The notes under the pieces are model-generated. The model had not been told where the DNA came from. It searched no databases and worked only from the letters and a program-made list of their open reading frames with translations. Shown one piece after another: positions 3,535 to 30,994 of a DNA stretch of 64,000 nucleotides (positions within the stretch are counted from its first letter, which is position 1; every line of letters starts with the position of its first letter). The DNA comes from an uncultured Muribaculaceae bacterium. GTDB lineage: Bacteria > Bacillota_I > Bacilli_A > RF39 > UBA660. The stretch spans positions 7,375 through 71,374 of the forward strand of contig CAYLJU010000003.1 of the NCBI GenBank assembly GCA_964384115.1, in the 5' to 3' direction. A program made the translations under genes and the position numbers.

Positions 3535-3546
3535 TTCTGTCATTTA

Positions 3547-4278: not shown

Positions 4279-4312
4279 AATTTACGGATTTAACTTTTAA
4301 AAATCAGCGCTT
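4279..4312. repeat. right copy of imperfect direct repeat flanking the cassette
   Basis: See the left copy at 105-160. The shared cores are AATTTACGG[G/A]TTT and AAAAATCAG. Confidence 0.45.
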
Positions 4313-4441
4313 TTAATTTGTAAAAATTATACATTAGTTTATCCTTAATGGTAATTAACTATAAAATATATTATATACTATTCTTTTATAAAAGTCAGCA
4401 CTAATAATATTATATCTTGTTTCGAAAACAAAGTCAGCACT
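4297..4441. promoter_or_regulatory. three copies of an AAARTCAGCRCT motif upstream of the HTH regulator gene
   Basis: aaaatcagcgct (~4300), aaagtcagcact (~4391) and aaagtcagcact (~4430). Confidence 0.35.
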
Positions 4442-4560
4442 TTTTTTATTTTTAAATGAATTATGTGAGTATTTAGATGATTTTGTTAAACAAATTATTT
4501 ATAAAAAACAAATATGATGTAACAAGAGATACTCGTTAAAAATAGATATATCAACTATAT

Positions 4561-5298: not shown

Positions 5299-5374
5299 AT
5301 TTTCACCTCAAATAATATAATCGACTAAATCATATAATAATCAATATCTAATTTCTATTTTCACAATTCAAATT

Positions 5375-5728
5375 TTAAAGTATTTTTTTATTTAATATGC
5401 AATTTGGATTTTTATCAGCATATATTTTCAGAATGTATATTGTAAACAATAACATAGTACTAATTATAATAATTATCCAGTTTTCAATAATAAATGTCAC
5501 CAAAGTAATTACTATGCAACATATAGTCCATACAAATATAAACACAAAAATTCTTATTATCCAGTGACTTATTGAACCGATTTCACCTCTAAAACCCAAT
5601 TTGCCAACAACGCTAAAAGCTATTTTATATGCAATATAACCTATAATAGTCATTGCTACATAATTATAAATAGGATTTTCAAATAAAGATAATGGTGATG
5701 TTATCATTTCAAACATAAATTTTTTCAT
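5375..5728 (-). CDS. small hypothetical membrane protein (3 predicted TM segments)
   Basis: 117 aa with strongly hydrophobic segments. Confidence 0.35.
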   Translation of the reverse strand: MKKFMFEMITSPLSLFENPIYNYVAMTIIGYIAYKIAFSVVGKLGFRGEIGSISHWIIRIFVFIFVWTICCIVITLVTFIIENWIIIIISTMLLFTIYILKIYADKNPNCILNKKIL

Positions 5729-5797
5729 TTATAATCCCCCTACTTCTTAATCATTCTATAAGCTAAATTTATAGTTAAGTCCTCTTTATCTAATCAT

Positions 5798-6466
5798 TTA
5801 CTCATCTATTAATTTTATCAAATTATATCCAATAGACGTAATTATAATTTTATCTATTCCAGCATCAGCTAAAACAGGAAGATTCCCAACTGATATTGCA
5901 TTACCCGAAGACTTTAAGCTATCACAAACTTTTAATCTAAACAGATTTAAAACCATAAGTTCATATTCTTCATCATTAATGTGTAATACGTTTTGAATAG
6001 TATTTCTGTCATAATATATATTTTTATTTGTACGTGTTTCTTCTAAATTAGGATCAACACTTATTTGTTTCAATAATCTAATTTCATTAATATTTAAATT
6101 TTTTAAAATTTCAATATACATATATTTAGGATCACAATTTTTTTCAATGTCTTGCCAATTAATTAGCATATTACACCATTGTTCTTGAATTTGTTCATTA
6201 TCTTCTTGTATAGCATTTTCTAATACTTCTAAAATAAATTTAGGAGGTAATGGCGTCTCTTTTCCTTCTAATTTTCTTCTTGCTCTTTTTTTATTATATT
6301 TATCTAGAAACTTTAAAGTATTGTTCCATCTAAAATAAGATAATTGATCAACTATAATATCACCAATAGAAGCAACAACCCTATTTTTAAAATTTTTAAG
6401 CTTCAACGAACCGGTACCAACTTCAGTATCTATTGAAATTTCAAATTCTTTATCTTTTTCTTCCAT
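5798..6466 (-). CDS. hypothetical protein, possibly Abi-alpha-like (weak resemblance, from memory)
   Basis: 222 aa with an acidic/W-containing central segment (PPKFILEVLENAIQEDNEQIQEQWCNMLINW). The resemblance to abortive-infection alpha proteins is weak and unverified. Confidence 0.3.
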   Translation of the reverse strand: MEEKDKEFEISIDTEVGTGSLKLKNFKNRVVASIGDIIVDQLSYFRWNNTLKFLDKYNKKRARRKLEGKETPLPPKFILEVLENAIQEDNEQIQEQWCNMLINWQDIEKNCDPKYMYIEILKNLNINEIRLLKQISVDPNLEETRTNKNIYYDRNTIQNVLHINDEEYELMVLNLFRLKVCDSLKSSGNAISVGNLPVLADAGIDKIIITSIGYNLIKLIDE

Positions 6467-6604
6467 TTTTTAATTTCTTTCCAAAGTAATGTTTCAAACA
6501 ATTTATATTATATCACTAATTTCTTGTTTCATATAATTAGTTATACAATTTTTTAAATTTACCACCTAAATGCCACCTAAAGCAAAATAAAAAGACCTTG
6601 AGTC

Positions 6605-6655
6605 CTTATAAACAAACAAAATGAGACGCCGTAGCGTCTCTTCAGGGGGTTTTTA
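6605..6655 (-). terminator. rho-independent terminator downstream of recG (stem gagacgc/gcgtctc, loop tacg)
   Basis: Perfect 7-bp stem at 6623-6640. On the minus strand it is followed by a U-rich tract (auuuuguuuguuu). Confidence 0.6.
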
Positions 6656-6796
6656 AATTGCATCTCACCATGACATAAAGTCAATATATCGTCAGATGCT
6701 AGCACACTTCCGTATGCTATATTAATTATAAAATATAACTTTTTTTTAGTCAATAATTTTACATAAAATATTTTATAGTTTACATATAAATTATTT

Positions 6797-8782
6797 TTAA
6801 TCAAGATTATCTATATTATTATTTATTTCATCAATCAACTTTTTATTTACATTTTCATGACAAGTTACCAATTCTGAAACATCTTCTTTTGCTTGTACCA
6901 TTATATTATAATCTTTTCTTACATCTGATAATTCAAATGACATATCACCGCTTTGTCTATATCCAAATAGATCACCACTTCCTCTTAATTTAAAATCTTC
7001 TTCAGAAATTTTAAATCCATCTGATATATCAACCATTATTTTTAGTCTTTCTTTTTCATAATTTGAAATTAATATACAATATGACTGTAATTCATTTCTG
7101 CCTACTCTTCCTCTTAATTGATGAAGTGCGGATAGACCAAATCTAAAGGCATCAAATATAACCATCATTGTTGCATTTTTTACATCTATTCCTACTTCAA
7201 TAACTGTTGTTGAAACTAATATTTGAGTTTTATTTTCTTTAAAATTGTTCATTGCTTCTTCTTTTTCTTCATTTGTCATTTTTCCATGTAATAAGCCAAT
7301 TTTATATAGTTTTCCGAAGGCAGTATTCATTTTATTATACAAAGCTTCTACATTTTCTAAATCCATTTTTTCGCTTTCGTCTATTAATGGCGCGACTACA
7401 TATATTTGATGACCTTTTTTTAATTCATCTAGCATCATATATAATACATCTTTAATTTCAGTTTCTTTTTTTAGAATAGTTATTATTTTTTTTCTTCCAT
7501 TTGGCATTGTTTTAATACTTGATATATCCATATCACCGTATAAGGTTAATGCATATGTTCTTGGTATTGGTGTTGCACTCATATATAATGTATCTGGTGT
7601 GATACCTTTATTTTTTAATTCACTTCTTTGATTAACTCCAAATCTATGTTGTTCATCGGTTATTACTAATCCTAAATTATTATATTTTAATTTTTCACTT
7701 ATTAATGCATGGGTACCTATTGCAACATTTATTATTCCTTCTTCTAATTCTTTATAAATTTCTTTTTTTTCTTTGGCTTTTATTTTACTTGTTATTAAGC
7801 ATACTTTTACACCATATGGTTTTAGAAGATTGTTTATATTTTCATAATGCTGACGCGCTAATATTTCTGTTGGTGCCATTAGGGCACTTTGATATCCACT
7901 TAAATAATTTATGTAAATTGCAATAATTGATACTAATGTTTTTCCAGATCCTACATCTCCTTGTAATAATCTATTCATTCTTCTTTCGGATATTAGATCG
8001 TCATATATGTCATTTATTGCTTTTTGTTGATCTGGTGTTAACTTAAATGGTAATTCATTAATAAAACTGTCTACTTTAGATTTTTCAACATTTCTTTTAA
8101 GTCCTATTTTAAATTTTTTGTTATTTTTTAGATAATTCATTTTTAACATAAAAATAAATATTTCTTCATATTTTAAGTAATTTAATGATTTTTTCAATGT
8201 TTCTATTTCTTTTGGATTATGAACATTATATATTGCTTCTTTCTTATCTATAAAATTATATTTTTCTTTTAAATAATCTGGTACATATTCTTTTATTTCA
8301 AAATCTTGTAGTGCAATATCGATATATTTTTTTAATACTTTTCTGCTTAATCCATATGTTAAATGATATACTGGTTCAATTATTGTTTCATTACCTATTA
8401 ATCCAATTTTAATTTCACTTGCTGTAATTGTATTGTGAATTTTATCATATTTTCCTATAACTGTTACATTTGTATTTTCTTTAATAGTAGCTCTCATAAA
8501 TCCACGATTGAATATAATTATATTTACTAAATATGTTCCAGTATTTATTTTAAAGCTTAATTTATCTAAGTTCTTTTTGATGCGATAAAAAGATGGTTTT
8601 GTTTCAACTTTTCCATCAATAGTTACATATGTATTATTTTCTGCTTCTTTTAAATTACTTCTTTTTATCATGTTATATCTAAATGGATAATATGTTACTA
8701 AATCATTTGTATCTTTAATTTTTATTTTATTTAATAAATTTAATGTTTTTGGTCCTATTCTTTTAATTTCTTCTAATTTCAC
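6797..8782 (-). CDS. recG: ATP-dependent DNA helicase RecG
   Basis: 661 aa with N-terminal wedge-like region, helicase motifs GDVGSGKT (Walker A) and DEQHRFG, and a C-terminal helicase domain. Confidence 0.9.
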   Translation of the reverse strand: MKLEEIKRIGPKTLNLLNKIKIKDTNDLVTYYPFRYNMIKRSNLKEAENNTYVTIDGKVETKPSFYRIKKNLDKLSFKINTGTYLVNIIIFNRGFMRATIKENTNVTVIGKYDKIHNTITASEIKIGLIGNETIIEPVYHLTYGLSRKVLKKYIDIALQDFEIKEYVPDYLKEKYNFIDKKEAIYNVHNPKEIETLKKSLNYLKYEEIFIFMLKMNYLKNNKKFKIGLKRNVEKSKVDSFINELPFKLTPDQQKAINDIYDDLISERRMNRLLQGDVGSGKTLVSIIAIYINYLSGYQSALMAPTEILARQHYENINNLLKPYGVKVCLITSKIKAKEKKEIYKELEEGIINVAIGTHALISEKLKYNNLGLVITDEQHRFGVNQRSELKNKGITPDTLYMSATPIPRTYALTLYGDMDISSIKTMPNGRKKIITILKKETEIKDVLYMMLDELKKGHQIYVVAPLIDESEKMDLENVEALYNKMNTAFGKLYKIGLLHGKMTNEEKEEAMNNFKENKTQILVSTTVIEVGIDVKNATMMVIFDAFRFGLSALHQLRGRVGRNELQSYCILISNYEKERLKIMVDISDGFKISEEDFKLRGSGDLFGYRQSGDMSFELSDVRKDYNIMVQAKEDVSELVTCHENVNKKLIDEINNNIDNLD

Positions 8783-8858
8783 TTTTTTTCTCTCCTAAAT
8801 ATACTATACCACTTTTATTATAAAAAAACTTTATTTTCACAAAAAATTAAAAAAAAGG

Positions 8859-8888
8859 TTGACAAAGCGACCTTTTTATAATAGTATA
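8859..8888 (+). promoter_or_regulatory. sigma-A-like promoter (TTGACA -17- TAGTAT) on plus strand between recG and PFOR
   Basis: ttgaca at 8859-8864 and tagtat at 8882-8887 give a 17-nt spacer. There is no plus-strand CDS downstream. Confidence 0.45.
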
Positions 8889-8892
8889 TAAA

Positions 8893-8988
8893 TTGCCAAT
8901 TCGATTAGGCGAATTGGAAGCTAGTATTACACTAGCCAACCCCTTTTTATTCTTTTATCGGACCTGCGAAAGCAGGTTCTTTTTTTAT
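8893..8988 (+). ncRNA. candidate ~95-nt small RNA with three hairpins, ending in a canonical intrinsic terminator (acctgc-gaaa-gcaggt + UUCUUUUUUU)
   Basis: Hairpins are ccaattcg/cgaattgg, gctagt/actagc and acctgc/gcaggt. A U-tract follows only on the plus strand. A promoter lies immediately upstream. Both flanking genes are on the minus strand. Confidence 0.4.
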
Positions 8989-11900
8989 TTCCTGCTTAAT
9001 GATTCATAGTAATAGAATCTTTTTTTTGCTTCTAATATATTATATTCAAGAAGTTTATCTGCTTCACTTGGATTTATCTTTTTTATGGCATTAAATCTTG
9101 TTTGTTTTTCTAGGAAATTTTGGTAATCATCAAAATTAACTTCTTTACTATCTAATATAAATTCTTCGCCTGGTTTGTAGTGGAAAAGTGGATAATAGCC
9201 ACATGATACGGCTTGCTTTTCTATTTCTATACTGTTCTCCATTCCACCTGTTATTCCATGTGATATGCATGGTGCATATGCTATTACTATTGATGGACCA
9301 TTGTGTTCATTTGCTTCTTTTAAAACTTTAATTAATTGGTTTGGATTAGCGCCTAAGCATACTGTTGCTACGTATACATGAGGATATGATAGAGCAATGC
9401 GAGCTAAATCTTTTTTATAATTTTTCTTACCAAAGCCAGCGAATGCTGCTAGTGTTCCGATTGGTGTTGCTTTTGATGCTTGCCCACCAGTATTGGAATA
9501 TACTTGAGTATCTAGTACTAATATATTAATATTTTCATTTGTTGATAATGCATGGTCTATTCCACCAAATCCAATATCATAAGCCCATCCATCACCGCCT
9601 ATGGCCCAAATACTTCTTTTTTTAATGTATTCCTTTATTTTCTTTAATTCTGGTAATTTACTGTAATCTAAATTTTCATATACTTCTTTTGTTATATTGT
9701 AATCATTTTCATTTTCTAAATATTTTTTGCATAAAGGATTATTTTTATTTTCTTCCATTATTTTATGAATTCTTTTTTTCATTTGACTGTTTGATACGGC
9801 CATTCCTAGTGCGAATTCAGCGTTATCTTCAAAAAGCGAATTTGCCCATGGTACTGTGTATGGTGTACAAGGACTTGATGCGCCGTATATTGATGAACAT
9901 CCTGTTGCGTTTGCGATGATTAATTCTTCACCAAATAATTGAGTTAAAATTCTTATATATGCTGGTTCCCCACATCCTGCGCATGCTCCTTCAAATGCTA
10001 ATTTTGGTTTTTCAAATTGACTTCCTTTTACAGAAAATATATCAAATAAATTTTTATTTTTTATTTTTTTGTTTAAGTATTCAAATACTTCTGCTTCTTT
10101 ATTTTCTTTGGCTTTTTCTATTTTTTGAGCACTTAATGCTTTTCCTCTATTTGGACATGTTTTCATACATAGTGTACATCCTGTACAATTGTCTATTGCG
10201 ATTCCCATTATAAAATAATAATCTTTTAAGGCTTTTATTAATGGTTTTTTGCATCTTTCTTTTATGTAGTTTGGGGCTGCATTATATTCTTCTTCTGATA
10301 ATAAATATGGTCTTATTACGCCATGTGGACAAACGAATGAACACTGATTACATTCTAAACAGTATTCTTTATTCCATTTTGGTACTATGTTGCTTATAGC
10401 ATTTTTATCGGTGAATCCACTTTTGGCTGTTCCGTCAGCGTATTTTAAAAATGCTGATGTTGGAAGATTTTCACCTTTTCTATCTAATATCGCTTCTTCA
10501 ATACTATTTATATTTTCTTCTTGTTCAATTATAAAATCTTCATCTTCTAATTCTACTTTTTCTAATATTTCTAATGATTCAGCAATTGCTCTTTTATTGG
10601 CATTTATTACTTCTTCACCTTTTTTAGCGAATTTTTTTGTAATTTCATTTTTCATGTGATTGATTGCATTTTCATATTCCATTACATTTGATAATTTTAT
10701 GATAACACTTTCCATAATTGTACTTATTTTGCCTTTTATTCCTACTTTGCTTGCTAATGAGTAGGCATTTATTATGTAAAATTTAAGATTTTTGTTTTTT
10801 ATTGTATATTTGATGTTATCATTTAATGTTTTTATAATTTCTTCTTTTGATTTTTCTGTATTTAATATAAATATTCCATTTTCTTTTATTTTGTCTAATA
10901 TATTAAAGCGATCTAAGTATGATTCTTTTGTACATACTATTATGTTTGGATTTTCAACATAATATGTTGATCTTATTTTTTCTTTATTGAATCTTAAATG
11001 TGATATTGTTACGCCACCTGATTTTTTGGAATCATATTGAAAATATCCTTGAACATAATTGTTTGTATTTTCACCTACTAATTTTATTATTGATTTGGCT
11101 GCTGATACCATACCGTCTGATCCATATCCATATATTAACATTTCATTTGATGTACTTATTTTGAAATTATCGTCTACTTTTATACTTCTTTTTGTTATAT
11201 CATCTACAATTCCAACTGTAAAATTATTAAATGGTTTATCTAAGAAGTCATAAATAGCTTTTATACATGCTGGATTGGTATTTTTACTTGATAATCCATA
11301 TCTTCCACCATATATTTCAATATTTTTGTCTTTTAAGGCAGCAGTTATATCTAAATATAGTGGTTCGCCTATACTTCCTGGTTCTTTTGTTCTATCTAAA
11401 ACGGCTATTTTTTTAACTGTTTTTGGTAAAATTTTCAATAGGTGGTTTGTACTAAATGGTCTATATAAATGAACTTCAACTAGGCCAACTTTATAATCTT
11501 TTTTGTTTAAACAATCTATTGTTTCTTTGATTGTTTCATTTACTGATCCCATTGCCACTAATACTTTGGTTGCATCTTTACTACCGTAATAATTAAATGG
11601 TTTATAATTTGTATGCGCTAATTCATTTATTTTATTCATGTATTTTTCTACAATATCAGGAATACTTTCATAAAAAATATTTCTTGATTCGGTTACTTGA
11701 AAATATATGTCATCATTTTGCGCTGTTCCTTTTGTTACTGGTTTATTTGGATTAAGGGCTTTATTTCGGAATTTGTTTAAAGCGTTTTTATCTATTAATT
11801 TAGCGTATTCTTTATCATCTATAATATTTATTTTGTCTATTTCATGACTTGTTCTAAATCCATCAAAGAAGTGCAAAAATGGTATGCTTGATTCTATTGC

Positions 11901-12371
11901 TGATAAATGGGCAACTGCTGCTAATAGATTAGCGTCTTGAACTGATGATGATGCTAATATGGCAAATCCAGTTTGTCTTGTTGCATATATATCTTGATGG
12001 TCTCCCATTATGCTTAAGGCATGGGTAGCAAGGCTTCTTGCTGCAACATGAAATACTGCTGGTAGCATTTCACCTGCTATTTTATACATATTGGGTATCA
12101 TTAGTAATAATCCTTGACTTGATGTAAATGTTGTTGTTAAAAGTCCTGATGTTAGAGAGCCATGGACAAATCCGGCTGCTCCTGCTTCCGATTGCATTTC
12201 TACTACTTTAACGCGATCATTAAATATATTTAATTTTCCTTTGTTACTTTCATTATCAATGTATTCTGCCATTGGTGATGAAGGTGTTATTGGGTAAATT
12301 CCGGCAAGTTCAGTGAAAAGATAAGCTGTTCTACTGCATGCTTCATTTCCGTCAACTGTTATTTGTTTCAT
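8985..12371 (-). CDS. nifJ: pyruvate:ferredoxin (flavodoxin) oxidoreductase, homodimeric single-chain type
   Basis: 1128 aa. N-terminus MKQITVDGNEA...YPITPSS. Two 4Fe-4S ferredoxin motifs (CxxCxxCxxxCP). C-terminal TPP-binding GGDGW motif. Strong AGGAGG RBS. Confidence 0.9.
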   Translation of the reverse strand: MKQITVDGNEACSRTAYLFTELAGIYPITPSSPMAEYIDNESNKGKLNIFNDRVKVVEMQSEAGAAGFVHGSLTSGLLTTTFTSSQGLLLMIPNMYKIAGEMLPAVFHVAARSLATHALSIMGDHQDIYATRQTGFAILASSSVQDANLLAAVAHLSAIESSIPFLHFFDGFRTSHEIDKINIIDDKEYAKLIDKNALNKFRNKALNPNKPVTKGTAQNDDIYFQVTESRNIFYESIPDIVEKYMNKINELAHTNYKPFNYYGSKDATKVLVAMGSVNETIKETIDCLNKKDYKVGLVEVHLYRPFSTNHLLKILPKTVKKIAVLDRTKEPGSIGEPLYLDITAALKDKNIEIYGGRYGLSSKNTNPACIKAIYDFLDKPFNNFTVGIVDDITKRSIKVDDNFKISTSNEMLIYGYGSDGMVSAAKSIIKLVGENTNNYVQGYFQYDSKKSGGVTISHLRFNKEKIRSTYYVENPNIIVCTKESYLDRFNILDKIKENGIFILNTEKSKEEIIKTLNDNIKYTIKNKNLKFYIINAYSLASKVGIKGKISTIMESVIIKLSNVMEYENAINHMKNEITKKFAKKGEEVINANKRAIAESLEILEKVELEDEDFIIEQEENINSIEEAILDRKGENLPTSAFLKYADGTAKSGFTDKNAISNIVPKWNKEYCLECNQCSFVCPHGVIRPYLLSEEEYNAAPNYIKERCKKPLIKALKDYYFIMGIAIDNCTGCTLCMKTCPNRGKALSAQKIEKAKENKEAEVFEYLNKKIKNKNLFDIFSVKGSQFEKPKLAFEGACAGCGEPAYIRILTQLFGEELIIANATGCSSIYGASSPCTPYTVPWANSLFEDNAEFALGMAVSNSQMKKRIHKIMEENKNNPLCKKYLENENDYNITKEVYENLDYSKLPELKKIKEYIKKRSIWAIGGDGWAYDIGFGGIDHALSTNENINILVLDTQVYSNTGGQASKATPIGTLAAFAGFGKKNYKKDLARIALSYPHVYVATVCLGANPNQLIKVLKEANEHNGPSIVIAYAPCISHGITGGMENSIEIEKQAVSCGYYPLFHYKPGEEFILDSKEVNFDDYQNFLEKQTRFNAIKKINPSEADKLLEYNILEAKKRFYYYESLSRK

Positions 12372-14145
12372 TATTTCCTCCTACATCTACAAACCAAGAT
12401 TTTGTTATATTGCATGAAGCACTGTTTGGGGCGGGATTTGGCATTGCAAATTTTATGATTACAGGAATTTTAAATCCGCTTCCAAATGCCATGCACATTC
12501 CTGGTGGTAGTAATTTTATTTTTTTTACTGTTTCTTCAGTTATATTTGGTATAATTTCTTTTATGAATTCAACATCTTTAGGGTGTTGTACTTTAAATAT
12601 TAAAAAATTGCTGCACTGGGATATAGCTGTTTCTGATAGTTCTGATGGTCTTTGTGTTATTAGTCCTAATAAAACACCATATTTTCTTCCTTCTTTTGTT
12701 ATTCTATCAAATATATTATATCCTAGTAAGTTTACGTCGTTATCGTTTTGGACATATCTATGTGCTTCTTCTAAGACTATGTGAAATGGAAAAGTTGCTT
12801 TTTGTTCCATATTCTTAGCATAATCAAATAATAATTTTGAATATATTTTAGTTATTGTTTTTGCTAATCTATCATCTATGTAGTTTATATTGAAATTTAT
12901 TATTTGGGCTTTTCTTCCGTTTGGTGCTGTCATAAGATTACGAATATATTTTTCTTTTGTTATGTATTCTGGATAATCAAAATATGTGTGATTTTCACTG
13001 TTTAATAATGTGTGTAATCTTACTTTTAGTATATTTAAATCATCGTATATTTTTTGACTATTTAATACTCCTTCTGATATAAGGGCGAATTCAAAAGCAT
13101 CTTTTAAATCTTTTAATGTATATTTGAATGTTCCATCTGGTAATTGTAGATTATATTCTTCTAATAAATATCCATTCATTACATTTGTTACTAATTCCAT
13201 TTCTCTTATTTTTCCTGTTGCATCTATTAATAGGCATTGTTTTAATGGTCTTGTATATCCTGGTTGTACTACTTTAGTTTCTAGATTTAATTCACTTGTG
13301 TTGTAATATGATAATACAGAAAATACTTGGTCTCTTATTTGAGCTGGTGAATTTCCACTTGATAATATGTCGAGGATTGCACGGGCTATTATGTCATTTT
13401 TATATTTTATAACACTTGATTCTTCTCTTCCAAAGATGGTTACATATTTTAAAGCTTTTTCAATTATTGTTAATTGAGATGCTTTTTCAGCGTTTAGTAA
13501 AAGTGCTATATCGTCAACCCCTAAAAACCATAGTGGTATACGCATTATTTCGCTTGGTCCTTTGGTATTTGTTGTATATGCTTTAAAACTGATATTTGGA
13601 TTTATTTTATTTATGTTTTCAAAGGCATTATGATATTCACCATAGGCATCAAATAAAAAGATTGATGCTTTGTATGGTATAGACATTTTTTTACTGAATA
13701 AATTTTGAAATATTCGTGCTACTCCGCATGATTTTCCTGATCCGGTGGATCCTATTATTGTAAAATGTTTGCTGAAAAAATCATTTATATTGACTCCTAT
13801 TTGGACATCGTCATATATTGGGCTTGTACCTAATAATAAATCTTTGTTTTCTTTGTATGTTGGCATACCTATTATGTATGGTACTTTTTCTTTTGATACT
13901 ATTTTTACAATAGAATCTAATGATGGTTTTTTGGAAATTCCGCTTACAAATGTATTTTCTTTTATTTGACCTATTAGATTTACTTGTAGTGTGTTTTCAT
14001 TTATATTGATGACTTCACCTACTAAATTATTTTCATTATTTTCAAATACAACAAAAGAATTTGTGATATTGCCTATGTTTGTTATTTGAGGATTTAATTT
14101 TACATATACTATATTTTCTTCTATTGATATTATTTTTCCTAACAT
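12352..14145 (-). CDS. HerA/FtsK-superfamily ATPase (HAS-barrel + P-loop, DUF87-like), paralog 1
   Basis: 597 aa with an N-terminal HAS-barrel-like segment, Walker A GSTGSGKS and Walker B HIVLEEAHRY, plus an ITQRPSELSETAISQCSNFLIFK block. Its last 20 nt overlap the PFOR start. Confidence 0.75.
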   Translation of the reverse strand: MLGKIISIEENIVYVKLNPQITNIGNITNSFVVFENNENNLVGEVININENTLQVNLIGQIKENTFVSGISKKPSLDSIVKIVSKEKVPYIIGMPTYKENKDLLLGTSPIYDDVQIGVNINDFFSKHFTIIGSTGSGKSCGVARIFQNLFSKKMSIPYKASIFLFDAYGEYHNAFENINKINPNISFKAYTTNTKGPSEIMRIPLWFLGVDDIALLLNAEKASQLTIIEKALKYVTIFGREESSVIKYKNDIIARAILDILSSGNSPAQIRDQVFSVLSYYNTSELNLETKVVQPGYTRPLKQCLLIDATGKIREMELVTNVMNGYLLEEYNLQLPDGTFKYTLKDLKDAFEFALISEGVLNSQKIYDDLNILKVRLHTLLNSENHTYFDYPEYITKEKYIRNLMTAPNGRKAQIINFNINYIDDRLAKTITKIYSKLLFDYAKNMEQKATFPFHIVLEEAHRYVQNDNDVNLLGYNIFDRITKEGRKYGVLLGLITQRPSELSETAISQCSNFLIFKVQHPKDVEFIKEIIPNITEETVKKIKLLPPGMCMAFGSGFKIPVIIKFAMPNPAPNSASCNITKSWFVDVGGNNETNNS

Positions 14146-14239
14146 TTTTATTCTCCTATAATAATATTATACATTGTTTTGGGCTAAAAAGGAATAATAA
14201 ATGAAAAAATAATATCATTTATTTACGATATTATTTTTA

Positions 14240-15211
14240 CTAAAATAGGGCTTTTCTTATTTCTATTTCTAAATTTTCTTTTAAATATAGTGTTAATTCT
14301 GTTTGTTTTTTTATTTTTATTATTCCAAATCCATTAATTATAAGTTCACTATCTGCTGGGACTTTTATTTTTTGGGTTACCAAATTTGTTTTTATTTCTT
14401 TATAATATCTTGTATATTTTAATGTGTCTGCTCCATAAAATACTACTGTGTTATATGGTTTTATTTTTAGTCCCAAAAAATCATCTATCATGATTATTTG
14501 CTCGGTTTTTATTTGATATATTTGTGGTTTAATTTTCTTTTTGGGAATTATTCTTTTTATTTCATCTTCTTCTAGATAGTCTATTATGTTACTTACTATT
14601 ATTCCTGGGGTATCTATTAGTGTTAAATTTTCATTGATATTTACTTTTACAAAATTAATTGTTGTTGATGGTAATACACTTGTTGTTAATTCATATTTAT
14701 TATTACTGTAATTTTTAATTATTTTATTTATCAATGTTGATTTTCCGGCATTAGTATATCCTACTAAATAAACGTTATTACTTTTCTTTTTTTCATTTAT
14801 TAGATTCATTAAATTATCTAGATTATAGTTGTTTTTAGCGCTGATTACTACTGTTTCTAAACATTTTATTTCTAATTTTTTAATGTAATCTATTATTTTA
14901 TTTTCATCTTTTTCAATTAGATCATATTTTGTTATGCATAATATAACGTTATTATTTAAATAATCAATTATTTCTTTTATTTTATTCGATAAATTGAATA
15001 TGTCTACAACAAATACTACTATATCATTAGATGCTTTTACTTCTTTTATAATTGTTTTTATTTCTTCTAAATGAGTTACTTTCTCATATTTATTGTAGTT
15101 TTTTATGTTGAAGCATCTCATACATAATTCTGATTCTAGATTTTTAGTATAGCCTATTTTCCCTTTTTCTAGTGTTAATGGTGCTCCACAACCTGTGCAT
15201 TTTTTAATCAT
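14240..15211 (-). CDS. yqeH: ribosome biogenesis GTPase YqeH
   Basis: N-terminal CxxC...CxRC zinc ribbon and a circularly permuted GTPase (NAGKST). It overlaps the yqeG stop, matching the conserved yqeG-yqeH pair. Confidence 0.8.
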   Translation of the reverse strand: MIKKCTGCGAPLTLEKGKIGYTKNLESELCMRCFNIKNYNKYEKVTHLEEIKTIIKEVKASNDIVVFVVDIFNLSNKIKEIIDYLNNNVILCITKYDLIEKDENKIIDYIKKLEIKCLETVVISAKNNYNLDNLMNLINEKKKSNNVYLVGYTNAGKSTLINKIIKNYSNNKYELTTSVLPSTTINFVKVNINENLTLIDTPGIIVSNIIDYLEEDEIKRIIPKKKIKPQIYQIKTEQIIMIDDFLGLKIKPYNTVVFYGADTLKYTRYYKEIKTNLVTQKIKVPADSELIINGFGIIKIKKQTELTLYLKENLEIEIRKALF

Positions 15212-15725
15212 AATATCTTCCTTTTATGAATAGTAAATTTTTAGTTAATCGATTGATTATTATTTTTTCTCTTATTCTGTTAATTTTTGTAAAGAAGAAA
15301 TCTTTTAATCCTATTGGATTAACTAAAATTGTTGTTATTCCAACTTTATTTCCCCCTATTATATCTGTTAAAAATTGGTCACCTATAATCGCAACTTCAC
15401 TATCTTTTAATTCATGTTTATCCATTATTTTTATAAAACTTCTTTTTAGTGGTTTCATGGAATGGGGATTTACTTCAACTTGTAATTGTTCTCTAAATGG
15501 TTCTAATCTTTTTGATCCACTGTTTGAGAATATTATGATTTTAAAGCCCATTTTTTTTAAGTCATCAAATAGTTCTTTTACTTTTTTTGTTGGTTCTTTT
15601 ACACCTATTGGTGCGATTGTATTATCTAAATCAAATAGTAGGCATTTTATACCTCTATCAATTAATTTTTCATAATTTATTGTGTATATACTTTTTTGAT
15701 AAATATCTGGTATGTATTCTTCCAC
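15204..15725 (-). CDS. yqeG: YqeG-family HAD-superfamily phosphatase
   Basis: HAD motif I (LLFDLDNTI) and motif IV-like (IGDQFLTDI). 173 aa, upstream of yqeH. Confidence 0.75.
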   Translation of the reverse strand: MEEYIPDIYQKSIYTINYEKLIDRGIKCLLFDLDNTIAPIGVKEPTKKVKELFDDLKKMGFKIIIFSNSGSKRLEPFREQLQVEVNPHSMKPLKRSFIKIMDKHELKDSEVAIIGDQFLTDIIGGNKVGITTILVNPIGLKDFFFTKINRIREKIIINRLTKNLLFIKGRYYD

Positions 15726-18792: not shown

Positions 18793-19833
18793 ATGAAGAA
18801 GAATATTTTGTTTATTTTAATTTTAACTATCATTTTAGGTTTTGTTTGCATAATATATTTTGGTGATAGCGAAGTTCAAATGAAAAATAGTTTAAAAAAG
18901 ATTGGTTATAGCGATGAAGAATCTGAAAAAATACTTAATGTTTTTAGTGATGATATTAATTGTATATATGATAATTATATAAGTGATATTACTGGTTTAC
19001 TTAATCATAAAGACTTTAATTCAGAAAATAAATGTCTTTATATTAAATATATAAAGGATAATAACGTTAACGCAAGTGTTGCAATTGAAATGGTTAATGC
19101 TAGTCTTGAAAATTATGATTATAGTGATTATTTATATAATATTAAAAATGATTCTTATTTTTTATTAAGAAATACTGATAGATATATTGATTATTATAAA
19201 AAAAATATGCAATTAAGTACAAGAGAAATTGTATCTGCTGTTAATGCCAATATTGATTATGATTATTATACAAACATTAAGGTTTCTGAAAACCAAGATA
19301 GTTTACTTGTTATTGTTAATAAATATCATACTTTGGATTCATCATATGTACCACAAAATTTGGTTAATGTTTCTTATCCATATGGATATGGAAAAGTTGA
19401 TAAAACTTTGTATGAAAATTTTAAAAAAATGGCTGATGCTGCTAGAAGTGAAGGCTTGAATATTTATATTTCTTCTGGTTATAGAAGTTATGATTATCAA
19501 AAAGCTTTATATAATGGATATACCAAAATAGATCCTGTTAGTGTTGTTGATACTTATTCTGCAAGGCCTGGTCATTCTGAACATCAAACTGGTTTAGCAA
19601 TTGACTTGAATACTATTTCATCTTCTTTTGCTTATACTAATGAATTTAAGTGGCTTATGAACAATGCTTATAAATATGGTTTTATTTTAAGATATCCAAA
19701 AGATGATGTTAATTTGACTGGCTATATGTATGAACCTTGGCATTATAGATATGTTGGTAATGATGTTGCGGAATATATTTATAAAAACAATATTACTTTT
19801 GATGAGTATTATGAATATTTTTTAGCTAATTAG
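18793..19833 (+). CDS. VanY/M15-family zinc D,D-carboxypeptidase, membrane anchored
   Basis: N-terminal TM segment. SGYRSY, ARPGHSEHQTGLAIDL and EPWHYRY (H-x6-D ... H) zinc-binding motifs of peptidase M15. Confidence 0.75.
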   Translation: MKKNILFILILTIILGFVCIIYFGDSEVQMKNSLKKIGYSDEESEKILNVFSDDINCIYDNYISDITGLLNHKDFNSENKCLYIKYIKDNNVNASVAIEMVNASLENYDYSDYLYNIKNDSYFLLRNTDRYIDYYKKNMQLSTREIVSAVNANIDYDYYTNIKVSENQDSLLVIVNKYHTLDSSYVPQNLVNVSYPYGYGKVDKTLYENFKKMADAARSEGLNIYISSGYRSYDYQKALYNGYTKIDPVSVVDTYSARPGHSEHQTGLAIDLNTISSSFAYTNEFKWLMNNAYKYGFILRYPKDDVNLTGYMYEPWHYRYVGNDVAEYIYKNNITFDEYYEYFLAN

Positions 19834-20325
19834 TGATGCTATGTATATTGTTTGTTTATCATTTCCTTTACATGTTATTAAAACTAATATGTTGTTGTAA
19901 TTATATTTTTTTATTACTGCTTTTCCATTTTTTAAAATATCATATATGTTTACTATTTGGTAAACATATTTTTTTTGATTGTAATTTATAATAATTTTAT
20001 CTTTTAATTCTAATTTATATAGCTTATTAAAATAAGATACATTTGAATTTCCATTATGACTTGCAAGTATTATACAGCTATTTTCATTTTCTGGTAATGA
20101 TAGTGGTTTTAATAATTCAATTCCTATATTAACATTGTTTAATTCACTATCTAAATTATATACTTCTTTTTTTAAGTTTATTTTAGGTATTTCTATTTCA
20201 AATAAGTAATTTTCTTTATATTTTGTTTCTTTTGTATTATTAATAGATGTATTATTAACAAACTTATAACTTAACATATTTAATAATGTTATTATTAATA
20301 TAATTGATTTAATTATTTTTTTCAT
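19822..20325 (-). CDS. sortase (class B/pilus-type-like) with TLxTC-like active site LVLITC
   Basis: Signal/TM N-terminus, ILASHNG (His), VLITCKG (Cys). Lies directly downstream of the adhesin gene. Confidence 0.6.
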   Translation of the reverse strand: MKKIIKSIILIITLLNMLSYKFVNNTSINNTKETKYKENYLFEIEIPKINLKKEVYNLDSELNNVNIGIELLKPLSLPENENSCIILASHNGNSNVSYFNKLYKLELKDKIIINYNQKKYVYQIVNIYDILKNGKAVIKKYNYNNILVLITCKGNDKQTIYIASLIS

Positions 20326-26327: not shown

Positions 26328-27635
26328 TTAAAATGGGAACTTCATATTGCCGTTTTGAAGTCTTTTCATCATTTCTTTCATTTGTTCAAATTGTTTTAAA
26401 AGTCTATTTACTTCTTCTACTGTTCTTCCTGATCCTTTTGCTATACGCATTTTACGACTAGCTTTTAAAACTTCTGGATGTTTTCTTTCATATGGTGTCA
26501 TTGATTTTATTATTGCTTCAATATGAGCCATATCTTTTGGATTTATTTGAACATTATTTAAACCCATTTTAGATGCTCCTGGAATTAATTTTAGTAAGTT
26601 TTCAAGTGGTCCTAGTTTTTTTATTTGTTCTAATTGCTTTAAAAAATCTTCTAAATCAAATTTACCTTTTTGCATTTTTTTTGCTAATTCTTCTGCTTCT
26701 TTTTCATCTATAATTGATTCTGCTTTTTCAACCATAGACATTAAATCGCCCATGTCAAGGATTCTACTTGCCATACGATCAGGATAGAATTCTTCTAATC
26801 CGTCTAGTCTTTCACTTGTTCCTATGAATTTTATTGGAATATTTGTTAAATGTCTAACTGATAATGCAACTCCACCTTTAGCACTTCCATCTAGTTTTGT
26901 TAAAATAGATCCTGTTAGTTTTAATTTTTCATTAAATCCATTTATGACATTAATTGCATCTTGACCAATCATACTATCTAGTACTAGTAATATTTCATCT
27001 GGGTTTAATGCTTCTTCAATGTTTTTTAGTTCATTCATTAGTTCTTCATCAATATGTAAGCGTCCTGCTGTATCTATTAATACATAATCATAATTATTTT
27101 CTTTGGCATATCTAACAGCATTTTTACTAATTTCAACAGGATTATTTTTTCCTTCTTCATAAACTTCTATATTAAGTTCTTTACCTAATTGTTTTAACTG
27201 GTCTATTGCTGCTGGCCTATAAATATCACATGCTACTAATAATGGTTTTTTCTTATATTTTTTTCTTAGTAAATTAGCTAATTTCCCTATTGTTGTTGTT
27301 TTTCCTGATCCTTGTAAACCAACTAGCATTAATATTGTCGGATTTCCATTTAATTTTAAGTCTTCTTTATTTCCACCTAATAATTCGACTAGTTCATCTT
27401 TTAATATTTTTACAAATACTTCCCCTGGATTTAATGATTTTGCGACTTCTTCACCTAAGGCTTTTGTTTTTACGTCATCAATAAATTCTTTAACAACTTT
27501 ATAGTTAACATCTGCTTCTAAAAGGGCAAGGCGTATTTCTCTTGTTACTTCACTTATATTTTCTTCAGTTATTTTTCCATATCCTTTTATTTTTTTTATT
27601 GCATTTTGTAGTCTTTCTCCTAATGTTTCAAACAT
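26328..27635 (-). CDS. ffh: signal recognition particle protein Ffh
   Basis: N and G domains (GLQGSGKTTT, DTAGR) plus a Met-rich M-domain. 435 aa. Confidence 0.9.
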   Translation of the reverse strand: MFETLGERLQNAIKKIKGYGKITEENISEVTREIRLALLEADVNYKVVKEFIDDVKTKALGEEVAKSLNPGEVFVKILKDELVELLGGNKEDLKLNGNPTILMLVGLQGSGKTTTIGKLANLLRKKYKKKPLLVACDIYRPAAIDQLKQLGKELNIEVYEEGKNNPVEISKNAVRYAKENNYDYVLIDTAGRLHIDEELMNELKNIEEALNPDEILLVLDSMIGQDAINVINGFNEKLKLTGSILTKLDGSAKGGVALSVRHLTNIPIKFIGTSERLDGLEEFYPDRMASRILDMGDLMSMVEKAESIIDEKEAEELAKKMQKGKFDLEDFLKQLEQIKKLGPLENLLKLIPGASKMGLNNVQINPKDMAHIEAIIKSMTPYERKHPEVLKASRKMRIAKGSGRTVEEVNRLLKQFEQMKEMMKRLQNGNMKFPF

Positions 27636-27689: not shown

Positions 27690-29447
27690 TTATGCTTTAT
27701 TTGCTTTCCATGTTTCATAAACATCACAGCTAGAACTGTATGGTGCGGGATCTGGCATTTGCATTTTTACTATCATTGGTATTTTAAATGCTTTTCCAAA
27801 TGCTACGCATGTTCCTGGTTGTAAGGACTTTTGTTTTTCAATTATTTCATTATTTATATTTGGTAACATCATTTTAATATATTCTAAATCCCTTGGATGG
27901 TTCATTTTAAATATCATAAAATTAGAACATTGTGATATTACTGTTTCTGATAATTCTACTGGTCTTTGGGATATTAAATTTAACATTACACCGTATTTTC
28001 TTCCTTCTTTGGCTACGCGTTCAAATATATTATAGCCTATTAAATATGTGTCTTCATCATTTTTTACATATCTATGGGCTTCTTCTAAAAATATATGGAA
28101 TGGTATTGATGCTCTTGTTTTTAAACTTTTTGCAAAATTAAATAACATTTTAGTGAATATTTTTGTAACAGCTTTAGCAAAACTATCATCTACTTCTTCG
28201 AGATTAAAATTGATTATTTGAACTTTTTTATTATTACTTGATATTAGAGATGCTATATATTTTTCTCTTGTCATATATGTTGGTAATTTAAAGTAATTAG
28301 AATTTTCTCCTATTACTAAAGCATGTAATTTTACTTTAAGTGTTACAGCATCACCATATGTTTGTTCATTTCTTAAAAATCCTTCAGATATTAATGTGAA
28401 TGATAATGCTTGTTCAAAATCTTCTAATGTATAATATCCTATGCTACTAGCTTCATATTTTTCTAAATCATCATTAATAAATCCTTGGATATATTGAGTT
28501 ATTAGAACACTTTCACAGAAGTTACCGGCTGTATCAATTATAAAGCATTCTCTAAATCTTCTTTGATATCCTATTCCTTGAATGATTGTTTCTAAATTGA
28601 ATTCTGGTGTTGAACATGTTTGAATTATACTAAATATATCATTTCTTTTAGATGCTGATGTTTGATTAGTATATAGTATTGTCATTATTGCTTTTGCAAT
28701 TAAATGGTTTTTATATTTTTGGGCTTCAACTCCATTTTCAGCAAATATGGCAACTAATTTAAGAGCACGCTCTAATATAGTTATTTGTCCATGATTTGTT
28801 GCGCCCAATAGTATAGCAATATCATCAACGTCTAAAAGCCATAATGGTATTTGTAATATTTCTCCTTCGGTATCATGTAGATTAGTTGTATAGTATTTGA
28901 AATTTAAATTGACATTGTATTTATTTATATCTTTAAAGGCATTATGATATTCTCCATAGGCATCAAATATAAATATGTTTGATCTAAATGGTAGATAGTT
29001 TTTATTATTAAATACATTTTGCAAAAGACGGGCAACACCGCATGATTTTCCGGAACCGGTATTTCCAAATATGGCCATGTGATTACTGAATAAATCGTTA
29101 TATTTTATTCTGACTGGACAATCGTCATATAATGGTGAGTATCCTAGTAACATTGTATCTTGTCCTTCTTCACCCACTATCATACGCATTTCACTTGGTT
29201 CAATTGCTCTTATTTTGCTTGTTAAGCTAGGTTTTCTTATAACTCCACCTATAAATTTTCCATTTACAATTTCTCCTAAAAATGATATTTTTATTTCCTT
29301 ATCACTTATATCATCTACTTCACCTAATATTTGTTTTTTTTCATCTTCAAATATAACATGTAAATTCATGATATCATTTATAACTACACCTTGTATTAAT
29401 TCTACTCGTGCGATGTTATCGCCTATATATAATATTTTTCCAAACAT
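27690..29447 (-). CDS. HerA/FtsK-superfamily ATPase (HAS-barrel + P-loop), paralog 2 (~50% identical to 12352-14145)
   Basis: Walker A GNTGSGKS and Walker B HIFLEEAHRY, plus ISQRPVELSETVISQCSNFMIFK. Collinear with paralog 1 along its whole length. Confidence 0.75.
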   Translation of the reverse strand: MFGKILYIGDNIARVELIQGVVINDIMNLHVIFEDEKKQILGEVDDISDKEIKISFLGEIVNGKFIGGVIRKPSLTSKIRAIEPSEMRMIVGEEGQDTMLLGYSPLYDDCPVRIKYNDLFSNHMAIFGNTGSGKSCGVARLLQNVFNNKNYLPFRSNIFIFDAYGEYHNAFKDINKYNVNLNFKYYTTNLHDTEGEILQIPLWLLDVDDIAILLGATNHGQITILERALKLVAIFAENGVEAQKYKNHLIAKAIMTILYTNQTSASKRNDIFSIIQTCSTPEFNLETIIQGIGYQRRFRECFIIDTAGNFCESVLITQYIQGFINDDLEKYEASSIGYYTLEDFEQALSFTLISEGFLRNEQTYGDAVTLKVKLHALVIGENSNYFKLPTYMTREKYIASLISSNNKKVQIINFNLEEVDDSFAKAVTKIFTKMLFNFAKSLKTRASIPFHIFLEEAHRYVKNDEDTYLIGYNIFERVAKEGRKYGVMLNLISQRPVELSETVISQCSNFMIFKMNHPRDLEYIKMMLPNINNEIIEKQKSLQPGTCVAFGKAFKIPMIVKMQMPDPAPYSSSCDVYETWKANKA

Positions 29448-29450
29448 AAA

Positions 29451-29741
29451 TTATAACATTTCTAATATTTTAGAAACCCTTTCATCTTTTATTTTTTCTA
29501 AATCTTTTTTTATTTTTTCGTCTCTTTTTATTATGCCTAATTTTTCTTCGTATTGCTCAAGTTTTATTTCACATGATTTTATTTGTTTATGGACTGCATT
29601 TCTGCTTATGTTATAGTTTTGAGCGATTTCTGATAATGATAAATTTTCAAAATAATAATCTTTAAAATATATTTGTTCTTTTTCTGTTAATAAATTTCCA
29701 TAATAATCAAATAATTTAGTATATTTTAGTACATTATCCAT
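29451..29741 (-). CDS. ylxM: YlxM/UPF0122 sigma-70-region-4-like putative DNA-binding protein
   Basis: 96 aa with an HTH (LSLSEIAQNYNISRNAVH). Sits between ftsY and the ffh region as in Bacillus. Confidence 0.7.
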   Translation of the reverse strand: MDNVLKYTKLFDYYGNLLTEKEQIYFKDYYFENLSLSEIAQNYNISRNAVHKQIKSCEIKLEQYEEKLGIIKRDEKIKKDLEKIKDERVSKILEML

Positions 29742-30042
29742 TAAATATTCCCCATATTCCTGTTATTATAAAAAATACTGCAAAACATATATATAGTGTT
29801 GTAAAATTTTTTCTTTTATATATTTTATGATTATTTATGGCTAGCGTGAATAATAATATACTTATTGCAAAGTCTGATAGAAACTTATATTTGCGCACAA
29901 CTAAATAAGTATATATAAATGTCCCTATGGCAATTATTAGGGCGAAAACTTGTAGCAAAAATAACCAATCTTTCATTTTATAATCTTTTATTTTTTTTGT
30001 TACTTTAGAACTTTCTGTATTACTTTTCATCATTTTTATCAC
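29734..30042 (-). CDS. small hypothetical membrane protein (2-3 TM)
   Basis: 102-aa ORF overlapping both the ftsY 3' end and the ylxM start. It may not be real. Confidence 0.3.
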   Translation of the reverse strand: MIKMMKSNTESSKVTKKIKDYKMKDWLFLLQVFALIIAIGTFIYTYLVVRKYKFLSDFAISILLFTLAINNHKIYKRKNFTTLYICFAVFFIITGIWGIFNG

Positions 30043-30994
30043 CTAAATCTTTGAATAATCCATAAATATATGATTCAATATCAAATGACTTTAAGTCATT
30101 ATATCCTTCTCCTAAACCAATGTATTTTACTGGTATTTTGACTTCATCTTTAATTGCGAGTACGATTCCGCCTTTAGCGCTACCATCAAGTTTTGTTAAA
30201 ACTATTCCTGTTATATCTGTTATTTCCTTAAAACTTTTAGCTTGTGATATACCATTTTGTCCTGTTGTTGCATCAATTACTAATAGTGTTTCATGTGGTG
30301 CTGATGGGATAATTTGTTTTATTACTTTATTTATTTTAGCTAATTCATTCATTAAATTTATTTTATTCTGTAATCTTCCAGCTGTATCTATTAATATAAC
30401 ATCATAATCTAAGCCTTTTTTTAATCCATCATAAACAACACTTGCTGGATCAGTTGATTCTTTATAATATACATCACATGATGCTTTTCTTCCCCATTCT
30501 TGAATTTGTTCAATCGCTCCTGCTCTAAAAGTGTCGCCTGCTATTAATAATACTTTTTTACCTTTATTTACTAATTGATAAGCAATTTTTCCTATTGTTG
30601 TTGTTTTACCTACTCCATTAACGCCTACGAACAGTAATACTGTTGGTCCTTCTTTATTAACATTTATTTTATTTGTTAATATATCGCCATCAACATATAT
30701 GATAAGCATTTCGTCTACTATTATTTCTTTTAATTCTTCTGGACTTGTTATTTTTTCTTCTTTTACTCTTTTTCTTAGTTTATCTACTAATTTCATAACA
30801 GTATCGACGCCAATATCAGCCATGATTAATATTTCTTCTAGTTCATCAAAATATTCATTTGTTAGTTCTTTATATTTCTTTGATAAGCCACCTAACTTTG
30901 ATGTAAAATTTTCTCTTGTTTTTTCTAATGCTTTTTCATATTCTTTAGTGTCTGGTTTATTCCAGAGATTCTTGAATTTTTCAAATAGTTTCAT
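30020..30994 (-). CDS. ftsY: signal recognition particle receptor FtsY
   Basis: NG domain with GVNGVGKTTT and DTAGR. 324 aa. Confidence 0.9.
   Translation of the reverse strand: MKLFEKFKNLWNKPDTKEYEKALEKTRENFTSKLGGLSKKYKELTNEYFDELEEILIMADIGVDTVMKLVDKLRKRVKEEKITSPEELKEIIVDEMLIIYVDGDILTNKINVNKEGPTVLLFVGVNGVGKTTTIGKIAYQLVNKGKKVLLIAGDTFRAGAIEQIQEWGRKASCDVYYKESTDPASVVYDGLKKGLDYDVILIDTAGRLQNKINLMNELAKINKVIKQIIPSAPHETLLVIDATTGQNGISQAKSFKEITDITGIVLTKLDGSAKGGIVLAIKDEVKIPVKYIGLGEGYNDLKSFDIESYIYGLFKDLGDKNDEK

Follow-up and report, generated by a model that had tools for sequence, protein, structure and literature searches.

A duplicated HerA-type ATPase of the Sir2-HerA branch, without a known partner gene nearby, in housekeeping operons of uncultured low-GC Bacilli

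We analysed a stretch of 64,000 nucleotides (hereafter the window) from an uncultured Muribaculaceae bacterium with the GTDB lineage Bacillota_I, Bacilli_A, RF39, UBA660 (assembly GCA_964384115.1, contig CAYLJU010000003.1, positions 7,375 to 71,374 of the forward strand). Its minus strand encodes two partnerless HerA-type ATPases, HerA-1 (12352..14145, 597 aa) and HerA-2 (27690..29447, 585 aa), which belong to paralogue clades A and B, respectively. A first-pass annotation of the same DNA had described these open reading frames (ORFs) as about 50% identical over their full length, each with Walker A and B motifs and a HAS-barrel N-terminus. BLASTP indeed aligns the two full-length proteins with 283/588 identities (48%), 70% positives and an E value of 0, far beyond chance. 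Both translations carry the motifs as described: Walker A reads GSTGSGKS in HerA-1 and GNTGSGKS in HerA-2, and Walker B, with its catalytic glutamate, HIVLEEAHRY and HIFLEEAHRY.

To which branch of the ring ATPases do these proteins belong? Both score above the cut-off of 23.2 bits for Pfam PF01935, DUF87, the 'Helicase HerA central domain' (77.0 bits for HerA-1, 83.4 for HerA-2), and stay under that of PF01580, FtsK_SpoIIIE (19.2 and 16.9 bits; cut-off 24). The best PADLOC model is HerA PDLC04102, which spans nearly the whole protein at 366-379 bits (379 for HerA-1). Nearest in NCBIfam is the 'anti-phage-associated helicase HerA' (HerA_antiphage NF042943/NF042944) at 156-177 bits, with cut-offs of 800 and 850 not reached; the repair-type models (helicase_HerA / HerA_Thermprot) give 89-121 bits and also stay below their cut-offs of 800-970. 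When solved structures are ranked by sequence profile, the HerA subunits of HerA-DUF4297 (PDB 9c1m, 8xau, 8ziq) and Sir2-HerA (8wiv, 8j4u, 8yho) come first and the archaeal HerAs 4d2i and 9x1l behind them; the profile E value is 1e-50 to a defence HerA, as opposed to 1e-33 to a repair HerA.

HerA-1 and HerA-2 adopt the HerA fold, and their catalytic motifs are preserved. An AlphaFold (AF2) model of HerA-1, based on an alignment of 30 homologues, reached a predicted local distance difference test score (pLDDT) of 83 and a predicted template modelling score (pTM) of 0.78. It bears out the HAS barrel, as an N-terminal beta-barrel at residues 3-82, and contains a RecA core and a large helical insertion (222-405). 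The top 50 Foldseek matches to this model were all HerA chains of defence complexes, with template modelling scores of up to 0.74/0.78. Within an EGRKYG motif, R487 and K488 are invariant in the 30-sequence alignment; they would be the counterpart of the trans-acting R455/K456 finger of HerA-DUF4297 (PMC11291478). Walker A was found in 152/152 sequences checked, and every mainstream member inspected, from either clade, retains an intact Walker B. Degenerate Walker B sequences occur only in rare deep members, P0251 (IDNAH) and P0250 (LEKAD), which may be inactive paralogues. A C-terminal PNPxPxSxSC...W motif was considered as a distinctive mark and dropped, since defence HerAs have it too.

What are the nearest natural relatives of this pair? 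An exhaustive profile search of 1.84 billion representatives returned 5,663 relatives, among which full-length 50%-identity clusters above 400 bits number only about 15. In P0264 (336 bits), P0254 (454 bits) and P0258 (413 bits) a SIR2_2 gene overlaps herA or lies adjacent upstream, and the surrounding genes are of defence type, among them HsdR, GmrSD, Mrr, a DNA methylase, PLD-family nucleases and a PD-(D/E)xK protein. Members scoring at least 580 bits are found without Sir2, among core genes. P0248 is located between rpmH-rnpA-yidC-jag and dnaA-dnaN-recF-gyrB, P0245 between a PP2C phosphatase gene and sepF-divIVA, and P0251 between a ylxM-like ORF and ffh; P0246 adjoins an LtaS-like gene. 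At the P0248 locus (L092, 3214-4965) the partnerless HerA between rpmH and dnaA sits at the presumed replication origin, and a comK-like gene is found there between dnaN and recF.

In a neighbour-joining tree, calculated without bootstrap, the Sir2-linked forms are basal and the partnerless forms make up one clade, split into A (HerA-1 type) and B (HerA-2 type). A discrete character, shared loop deletions, lends tree-independent support to this single partnerless clade: all 108 of the 108 partnerless sequences have short loops at three barrel/linker sites. The first measures 12-14 residues, apart from one sequence that appears truncated, the second always 9 and the third 8-12, compared with 23-24, 24-33 and 15-26 residues at the same sites in all Sir2-type outgroups; P0256, with one loop lost, is an intermediate. 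In solved systems, Sir2 and DUF4297 dock on the N-terminal barrel face (PMC11472057, PMC11291478); in the HerA of Paenibacillus, F39, Y60 and I100 touch Sir2 (PMC11472057). We infer that the deleted loops carry docking residues. HerA-1 and HerA-2 derive from the Sir2-HerA branch, with a trimmed effector-docking domain. Their nearest relatives are the HerA subunits of Sir2-HerA defence pairs, so that the two proteins are a derived, partnerless offshoot.

HerA-1 closes an array that begins with yqeG, encoding an HAD-IIIA phosphatase (15204..15725, minus strand; TIGR01668 at 109 bits, above cut-off). Directly upstream of HerA-1 lies yqeH, for a ribosome-biogenesis GTPase (14240..15211, minus strand), whose best match, TIGR03597 at 217 bits, is under the 297-bit cut-off. 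The 94-nt spacer in front of HerA-1 holds an AT-rich hairpin with a T-run, possibly a weak terminator (14204..14235, minus strand), an extended -10-like element, TGTATAAT (14173-14166, minus strand), and a ribosome-binding site (RBS), AGGAG (14157-14153, minus strand), ahead of the ATG, all read from the sequence only. The hairpin was not called by the terminator scan, which requires G+C, and promoter and terminator consensus scans returned counts equal to the shuffled expectation in DNA of 25% GC and are uninformative. Rfam detected no RNA element near HerA-1 or HerA-2. Placed after the hairpin, these elements look like an extended -10 promoter and RBS that belong to HerA-1 itself, so that a herA1-PFOR unit probably begins with this gene in this species. 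The nifJ-type PFOR (8985..12371, minus strand, 1128 aa; Pfam POR_N/PFOR_II/POR/TPP_enzyme_C) follows downstream. Its start (codon at 12371, MKQITVDGNEA...) is overlapped by the last 20 nt of HerA-1, within which gene its RBS, GGAGGA, sits as well. Beyond PFOR lies recG (6797-8782).

How well is this arrangement conserved? A scan of one genome per GTDB species yielded at least 430 relatives. The best 80 of these loci, all from metagenome-assembled genomes (MAGs) of uncultured 'Bacilli / Tenericutes / Mycoplasmatota', hold HerA-1 orthologues of 59-88% identity. Many of these 80 genomes bear host-associated sample labels (human gut, deer, sheep, rabbit), and members of the family are known only from uncultured organisms. 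The order yqeG-yqeH-herA1 recurs in 56/87 loci, with yqeG occupying position -2 in 53; downstream, the gene content differs from locus to locus. PFOR stands behind HerA-1 in only about 10 of the 87 (the CAG:884 group, L026 and L085). The overlap that had been taken as a sign of co-transcription with a central-metabolism gene is thus real but lineage-specific, and the conserved links are those upstream, to yqeG-yqeH and, for the second copy, to ftsY-ylxM.

The array of HerA-2 starts with ftsY, encoding the signal recognition particle (SRP) receptor (30020..30994, minus strand; SRP54/SRP54_N). A small ORF with three transmembrane segments (29734..30042, minus strand) overlaps the 3' end of ftsY by 23 nt and the start of ylxM by 8 nt. 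The latter gene, for the helix-turn-helix protein of the SRP operon (29451..29741, minus strand; NF045758 YlxM, 95 bits, above cut-off), is directly upstream of HerA-2. From the ylxM stop to the HerA-2 ATG there is a gap of 3 nt, without a Shine-Dalgarno sequence for HerA-2, which is likely translationally coupled to ylxM. Downstream, past a small hairpin and T-run, follows ffh (SRP54; 26328..27635, minus strand; SRP54/SRP_SPB). A metagenome scan with HerA-2 gave 34 loci with orthologues of 59-93% identity, and ftsY-(transmembrane ORF)-ylxM-herA2 is present in about 27 of them, essentially every locus with upstream sequence included. The small transmembrane ORF keeps its position in most HerA-2 loci (TM102 homologues), is absent in L026 and L085, and evolves fast, with 29-37% identity and a ratio of nonsynonymous to synonymous substitutions (dN/dS) of 0.20. 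In several loci (L004, L097, L108-110, L117, L129), ffh is found downstream of HerA, as is often the case. Both paralogues are therefore conserved and similarly placed in relatives, each behind a fixed upstream array, a point that the first-pass annotation had wished to see checked.

Some relatives combine the two settings. L026 has a single array, ftsY-ylxM-herA2-pilin-pilin-herA1-PFOR (5967-15152), L085 an array of this type without herA2, so that herA1 is in the ylxM array (7781-15137), and in L004 a clade-A HerA is directly upstream of ffh. The L026 array and the herA-ffh adjacency of L004 suggest that the SRP operon was the ancestral insertion site and that the duplication occurred in tandem. 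As a side observation, the two genes between the paralogues in L026 are type-IV-pilin-like (~125 aa, N-terminal KGFTLIELM), and similar pilin genes are found within 10 kb of herA1 in 19 loci.

Rates of evolution are in keeping with those of the neighbouring genes. In pairwise comparisons, HerA-1 and YqeH diverge in step (r = 0.80), as do HerA-2 and FtsY (r = 0.92); median pairwise identity is 0.68 for HerA-1 versus 0.46 for YqeH. Against the closest orthologues, dN/dS is 0.08-0.10 for HerA-1 and 0.09 for HerA-2, next to 0.08 for FtsY, 0.06 for Ffh, 0.11 for RNase J and 0.08-0.11 for PFOR; with dS at 0.7-1.0, these values are relative measures. A phage or mobile origin of the copies was rejected: 2.9 million viral contigs contained no HerA relative, and the base composition is not anomalous. 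The gene was duplicated, and both copies behave like vertically inherited core genes.

Could a partner have been overlooked? The first-pass annotation had noted that neither copy has a NurA, Sir2 or DUF4297 neighbour, which holds throughout the window scans and more than 120 related loci. Partner searches covered the window and the fetched loci with flanks of up to 10 kb, not whole genomes. Pfam and NCBIfam scans of the ~56 larger window ORFs, five of which returned no family (~10 small ORFs fell outside the scan), detected no SIR2, NurA, DUF4297, Mre11 or Rad50. A Sir2 profile built from the outgroup partners matched none of 3,587 ORFs from the window and all fetched loci. In the window and annotated loci, Pfam likewise found no DUF4297 (Cap4-like PD-(D/E)xK) nuclease, and no neighbouring gene for NurA, which is often accompanied by Mre11/Rad50.

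Three further candidates were considered and rejected. A fused partner domain was sought in the extra regions of P0242, P0243, P0244, P0245 and P0251, which proved to be low-complexity Ser/Asn/Thr-rich tails only; such tails reach 80-350 aa in some partnerless HerAs, and that of P0242 contains three 'EHNPALDFG' repeats. De novo clustering of neighbours in 87 loci yielded no evident nuclease or NADase and no constant gene. The recurrent neighbours, named by reading their sequences rather than by family search, are pilin-like, DacA, a radical-SAM enzyme, FeoB, LtaS-like, an SNF2 helicase, DnaE, RelA and Tmk. Finally, in L132-L134 the deep-branching partnerless HerA P0247 is preceded, at a distance of 44 nt, by a gene of the RmuC family (355 aa, PF02646). 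These three contigs represent one lineage, a T-run and a TATAAT separate the genes, and no RmuC was found in the window or the other loci.

Several features of the window stand apart from the two ATPases. Beyond recG, positions 345-6466 form a variable, defence-like patch with a Schlafen-group-3-like helicase (885-2759, PF09848), a double-HTH (helix-turn-helix) protein (3547-4092), Abi_alpha (5798-6466) and several family-less ORFs. Close relatives L001-L003 carry restriction-modification methylases at the same position, and the patch therefore looks like a defence hot spot. A PGK RNA motif (41034-41127, minus strand; Rfam RF03040, 74 bits with the gathering score at 50.8) has spoIVA (41396-42865) on one side and a gene resembling a CCA-adding enzyme (39415-40509) on the other, with no phosphoglycerate kinase gene beside it. 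Two ORFs without a Pfam or NCBIfam family, at 46968-48743 (591 aa) and 31090-31683 (197 aa), have in common a membrane/signal segment at the N-terminus and a conserved '...HTIYW[EQ]WPYDSG' module; these shared features suggest a secreted protein family specific to the lineage. The shorter one is just upstream of ftsY, with an orthologue at the equivalent place in L099/L100. The sporulation genes yunB (37515-38141), spoIVA (41396-42865) and a gerM-like gene for a Germane protein (48886-49812) sit in a 25% GC genome of a lineage that several MAG records label Tenericutes/Mycoplasmatota, and gpr and spoIIP were seen in the related locus L004. At 19822-22630 (minus strand), a sortase gene adjoins one for a surface protein of 773 aa that combines a thioester domain with four repeats of the SpaA type; the two resemble a pilus or adhesin pair. 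A 306-aa ORF at 24649-25569 (minus strand) has no Pfam match at E<=1e-4 and a weak NCBIfam similarity, far under cut-offs, to ATP-grasp ligases of the cyanophycin synthetase/RimK family.

How might a defence subunit have come to reside in two housekeeping operons? We favour, with a probability of about one half, a history in which a defence-derived HerA DNA motor was taken over for housekeeping and then duplicated and specialised; the evolutionary part of this reading is much firmer than the functional part. The starting point is the HerA subunit of a Sir2-HerA anti-phage system, a ring-forming ATPase of the HerA/FtsK superfamily. In the ancestor of a large, uncultured lineage of low-GC Bacilli, the Sir2 partner was lost, and the N-terminal HAS barrel with its linker, on which Sir2, DUF4297 and NurA dock in known systems, was shortened by three loops. 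The SRP operon (ylxM-herA-ffh) probably became the home of the gene, which was duplicated; each copy is now inherited vertically as a core gene under strong purifying selection. By analogy with solved relatives, which bind and translocate double-stranded DNA (dsDNA) (PMC11291478; PDB 8ziq, 8xaw), the proteins would act as hexameric ATP-driven dsDNA translocases or helicases. Their present task may be constitutive chromosome maintenance (recombination, repair or a replication-associated process) rather than abortive infection, and the paralogues may have specialised through the helical insertion domain for different clients or assembly roles. The HerA behind the recombination gene rmuC in one deep lineage counts in favour of a DNA substrate. 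A housekeeping rather than a defence role, as first proposed from the sequence, would fit the conserved synteny, the vertical co-inheritance and the dN/dS of ~0.09.

Several considerations weigh against this reading. The operon partners YqeH, FtsY, YlxM and Ffh are related to translation or secretion, not to DNA, and both the DNA substrate and the cellular process are deduced by analogy. The rmuC adjacency comes from a single lineage and is interrupted by a promoter-like element. An effector, whether Sir2, NurA or another, may be encoded outside the loci examined. The neighbour-joining tree has no bootstrap, and the connection between lost loops and Sir2 binding is inferred.

Do the two paralogues work together or apart? 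Within each clade, identity is 0.57-0.80 in every domain. Between clades it is lowest in the barrel (0.35) and the helical insertion (0.39), with 0.64 in the ATPase core and 0.51 in the C-terminal hook. There are 24 positions at which each clade is fixed for a different residue; 17 of them fall in the helical insertion (mainly 251-302) and none in the C-terminal hook. This pattern indicates specialisation, not redundancy or decay; it fits either one mixed ring or two separate rings and does not discriminate between them. That HerA-1 and HerA-2 form one obligate hetero-hexamer, instead of two homo-hexamers, is a possibility that we hold doubtful, and it is compatible with the takeover for housekeeping set out above. 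Both proteins are encoded in the window and in the single array of L026, the only two cases in which both paralogues are shown in one genome; clades A and B are both old and similarly deep; the parts in contact between subunits, ATPase core and C-terminal hook, are the most alike between clades; and Walker B is inactivated in a few deep members (P0251, P0250), as in mixed rings. On the other hand, the genes belong to different operons, with different promoters or coupling, L085 has herA1 in its ylxM array and no herA2, and all solved relatives are homo-hexamers.

Might the proteins still serve immunity, as a constitutive HerA sensor or motor whose effector is unlinked, or new and missed by current profiles? 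All of their closest relatives are HerAs of defence systems, the top PADLOC model extends over almost the entire protein, and the C-terminal PNPxPxSxS...W motif is common to defence HerAs. We nevertheless consider this unlikely: no effector adjoins them in more than 120 loci, they occur in housekeeping operons and never in defence islands, they are inherited vertically with a dN/dS of ~0.09 as in core genes, their effector-docking barrel is trimmed, and HerA_antiphage scores of 156-177 bits stand against cut-offs of 800-850.

Could the substrate be something other than DNA, namely RNA, a ribonucleoprotein or a protein, handled in ribosome biogenesis or SRP-dependent targeting? The neighbours speak for it: herA1 follows yqeH, for a GTPase of 30S biogenesis, in the yqeG-yqeH-herA1 order of 56/87 loci, herA2 lies between ylxM and ffh and is likely coupled translationally to ylxM, and HerA adjoins ffh in both clades (L004, L097, the window). 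FtsK-like ATPases that move proteins are also known (EssC, VirD4). However, housekeeping operons of Firmicutes often combine unrelated functions, and other members adjoin dnaA, sepF-divIVA or rmuC. The characterised close relatives, moreover, all bind dsDNA (PMC11291478), and we rate a non-DNA substrate as quite unlikely. Similarly improbable, in our estimate, is a bolder form of the takeover, in which HerA was exapted from abortive-infection defence into an indispensable core factor and became a physical or regulatory partner of YqeH, FtsY, YlxM and Ffh, perhaps in the form of a hetero-hexamer and perhaps acting on a substrate other than DNA. If true, such a partnership with translation-associated GTPase machinery would be a role without precedent for HerA.

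A classical HerA-NurA end-resection machine, with NurA encoded outside the window, would agree with membership of the HerA family, and the first-pass annotation had allowed for a distant partner. It is very improbable, as the sequences are nearer to defence than to repair HerAs (E 1e-50 versus 1e-33, and the NCBIfam scores) and Pfam found no adjacent NurA in more than 120 loci. NurA normally adjoins HerA in bacteria and archaea. Replacement of FtsK/SpoIIIE as the chromosome-segregation pump, for which the common superfamily and the one member beside sepF-divIVA could be cited, was rejected as scarcely credible because a complete FtsK/SpoIIIE with alpha, motor and gamma domains is encoded in the window (52027-54204, minus strand, then uvrC at 54293-56059), although an auxiliary role beside FtsK is conceivable.

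The takeover of a HerA motor for housekeeping matters beyond this window. Few examples are at hand of defence genes taken over for core cell functions, and this is a clear, traceable case of a defence-module component that passed into the core genome. The transition can be read stepwise, from Sir2-linked forms in defence islands through P0256 to a partnerless, loop-trimmed and duplicated clade in housekeeping operons. That clade spans hundreds of uncultured low-GC Bacilli genomes, as well as metagenome contigs, of a lineage known mostly from animal-associated metagenomes. In our literature searches, we found no description of a partnerless, housekeeping, duplicated, core-genome clade of bacterial HerA, nor of a defence-to-core takeover of a HerA module. 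The proposed role had initially been called undescribed, subject to the absence of a match to a well-characterised family and of a nearby partner nuclease. Its nearest family, Sir2-HerA defence, is in fact well characterised, but the window HerAs lack the features that define it, and no partner nuclease was found in the loci examined. The pair offers a concrete system for what a HerA ring does without an effector and flags two conserved, function-orphan proteins in a poorly understood bacterial group. Given PADLOC HerA scores of ~370 bits, these core genes are at risk of being annotated as orphan parts of defence systems by profile-based defence finders.

How, then, do the window HerAs compare with known systems? 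FtsK and SpoIIIE belong to the same ASCE P-loop superfamily of ring translocases, but the window HerAs score under the PF01580 cut-off and are devoid of transmembrane, alpha and gamma domains. The HerA-NurA end-resection helicase (PDB 4d2i, 9x1l) is a hexameric motor of the same family, and its repair role is the closest functional analogy. It is more distant in sequence (E 1e-33, 1e-23), while the window HerAs have no NurA, Mre11 or Rad50 neighbours and a much larger helical insertion (~320 aa from Walker A to Walker B). HerA-DUF4297 (PDB 9c1m, 8xau, 8ziq) provides the best matches among solved structures, both by sequence (profile E 1e-50) and by Foldseek (E 3.6e-29). These complexes are dsDNA-translocating hexamers, and their R455/K456 finger corresponds by motif to R487/K488 of the window HerAs. 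Identity is only ~20%, however, no DUF4297- or Cap4-like gene adjoins the window HerAs, and their nearest natural relatives carry Sir2.

The closest likeness is to Sir2-HerA (Nezha; PDB 8wiv/8wld, 8yho/8yhx, 8j4u, 8su9), which has the same fold and domain order of HAS barrel, RecA core, helical insertion and C-terminal hook. Sir2-HerA also has the same Walker A and B, R/K finger and C-terminal PNPxPxS...W motifs, and it is nearest in the tree and by profile score. Unlike this system, the window HerAs have no Sir2 gene, adjacent or elsewhere in the loci examined, are ~40-100 aa shorter with three barrel/linker loops deleted, and are duplicated, vertically inherited genes of housekeeping operons under purifying selection like that of core genes, with neither a defence-island location nor a patchy distribution. 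Thus, the two ATPases depart from the defining features of Sir2-HerA, yet belong to the broader HerA/DUF87 family.

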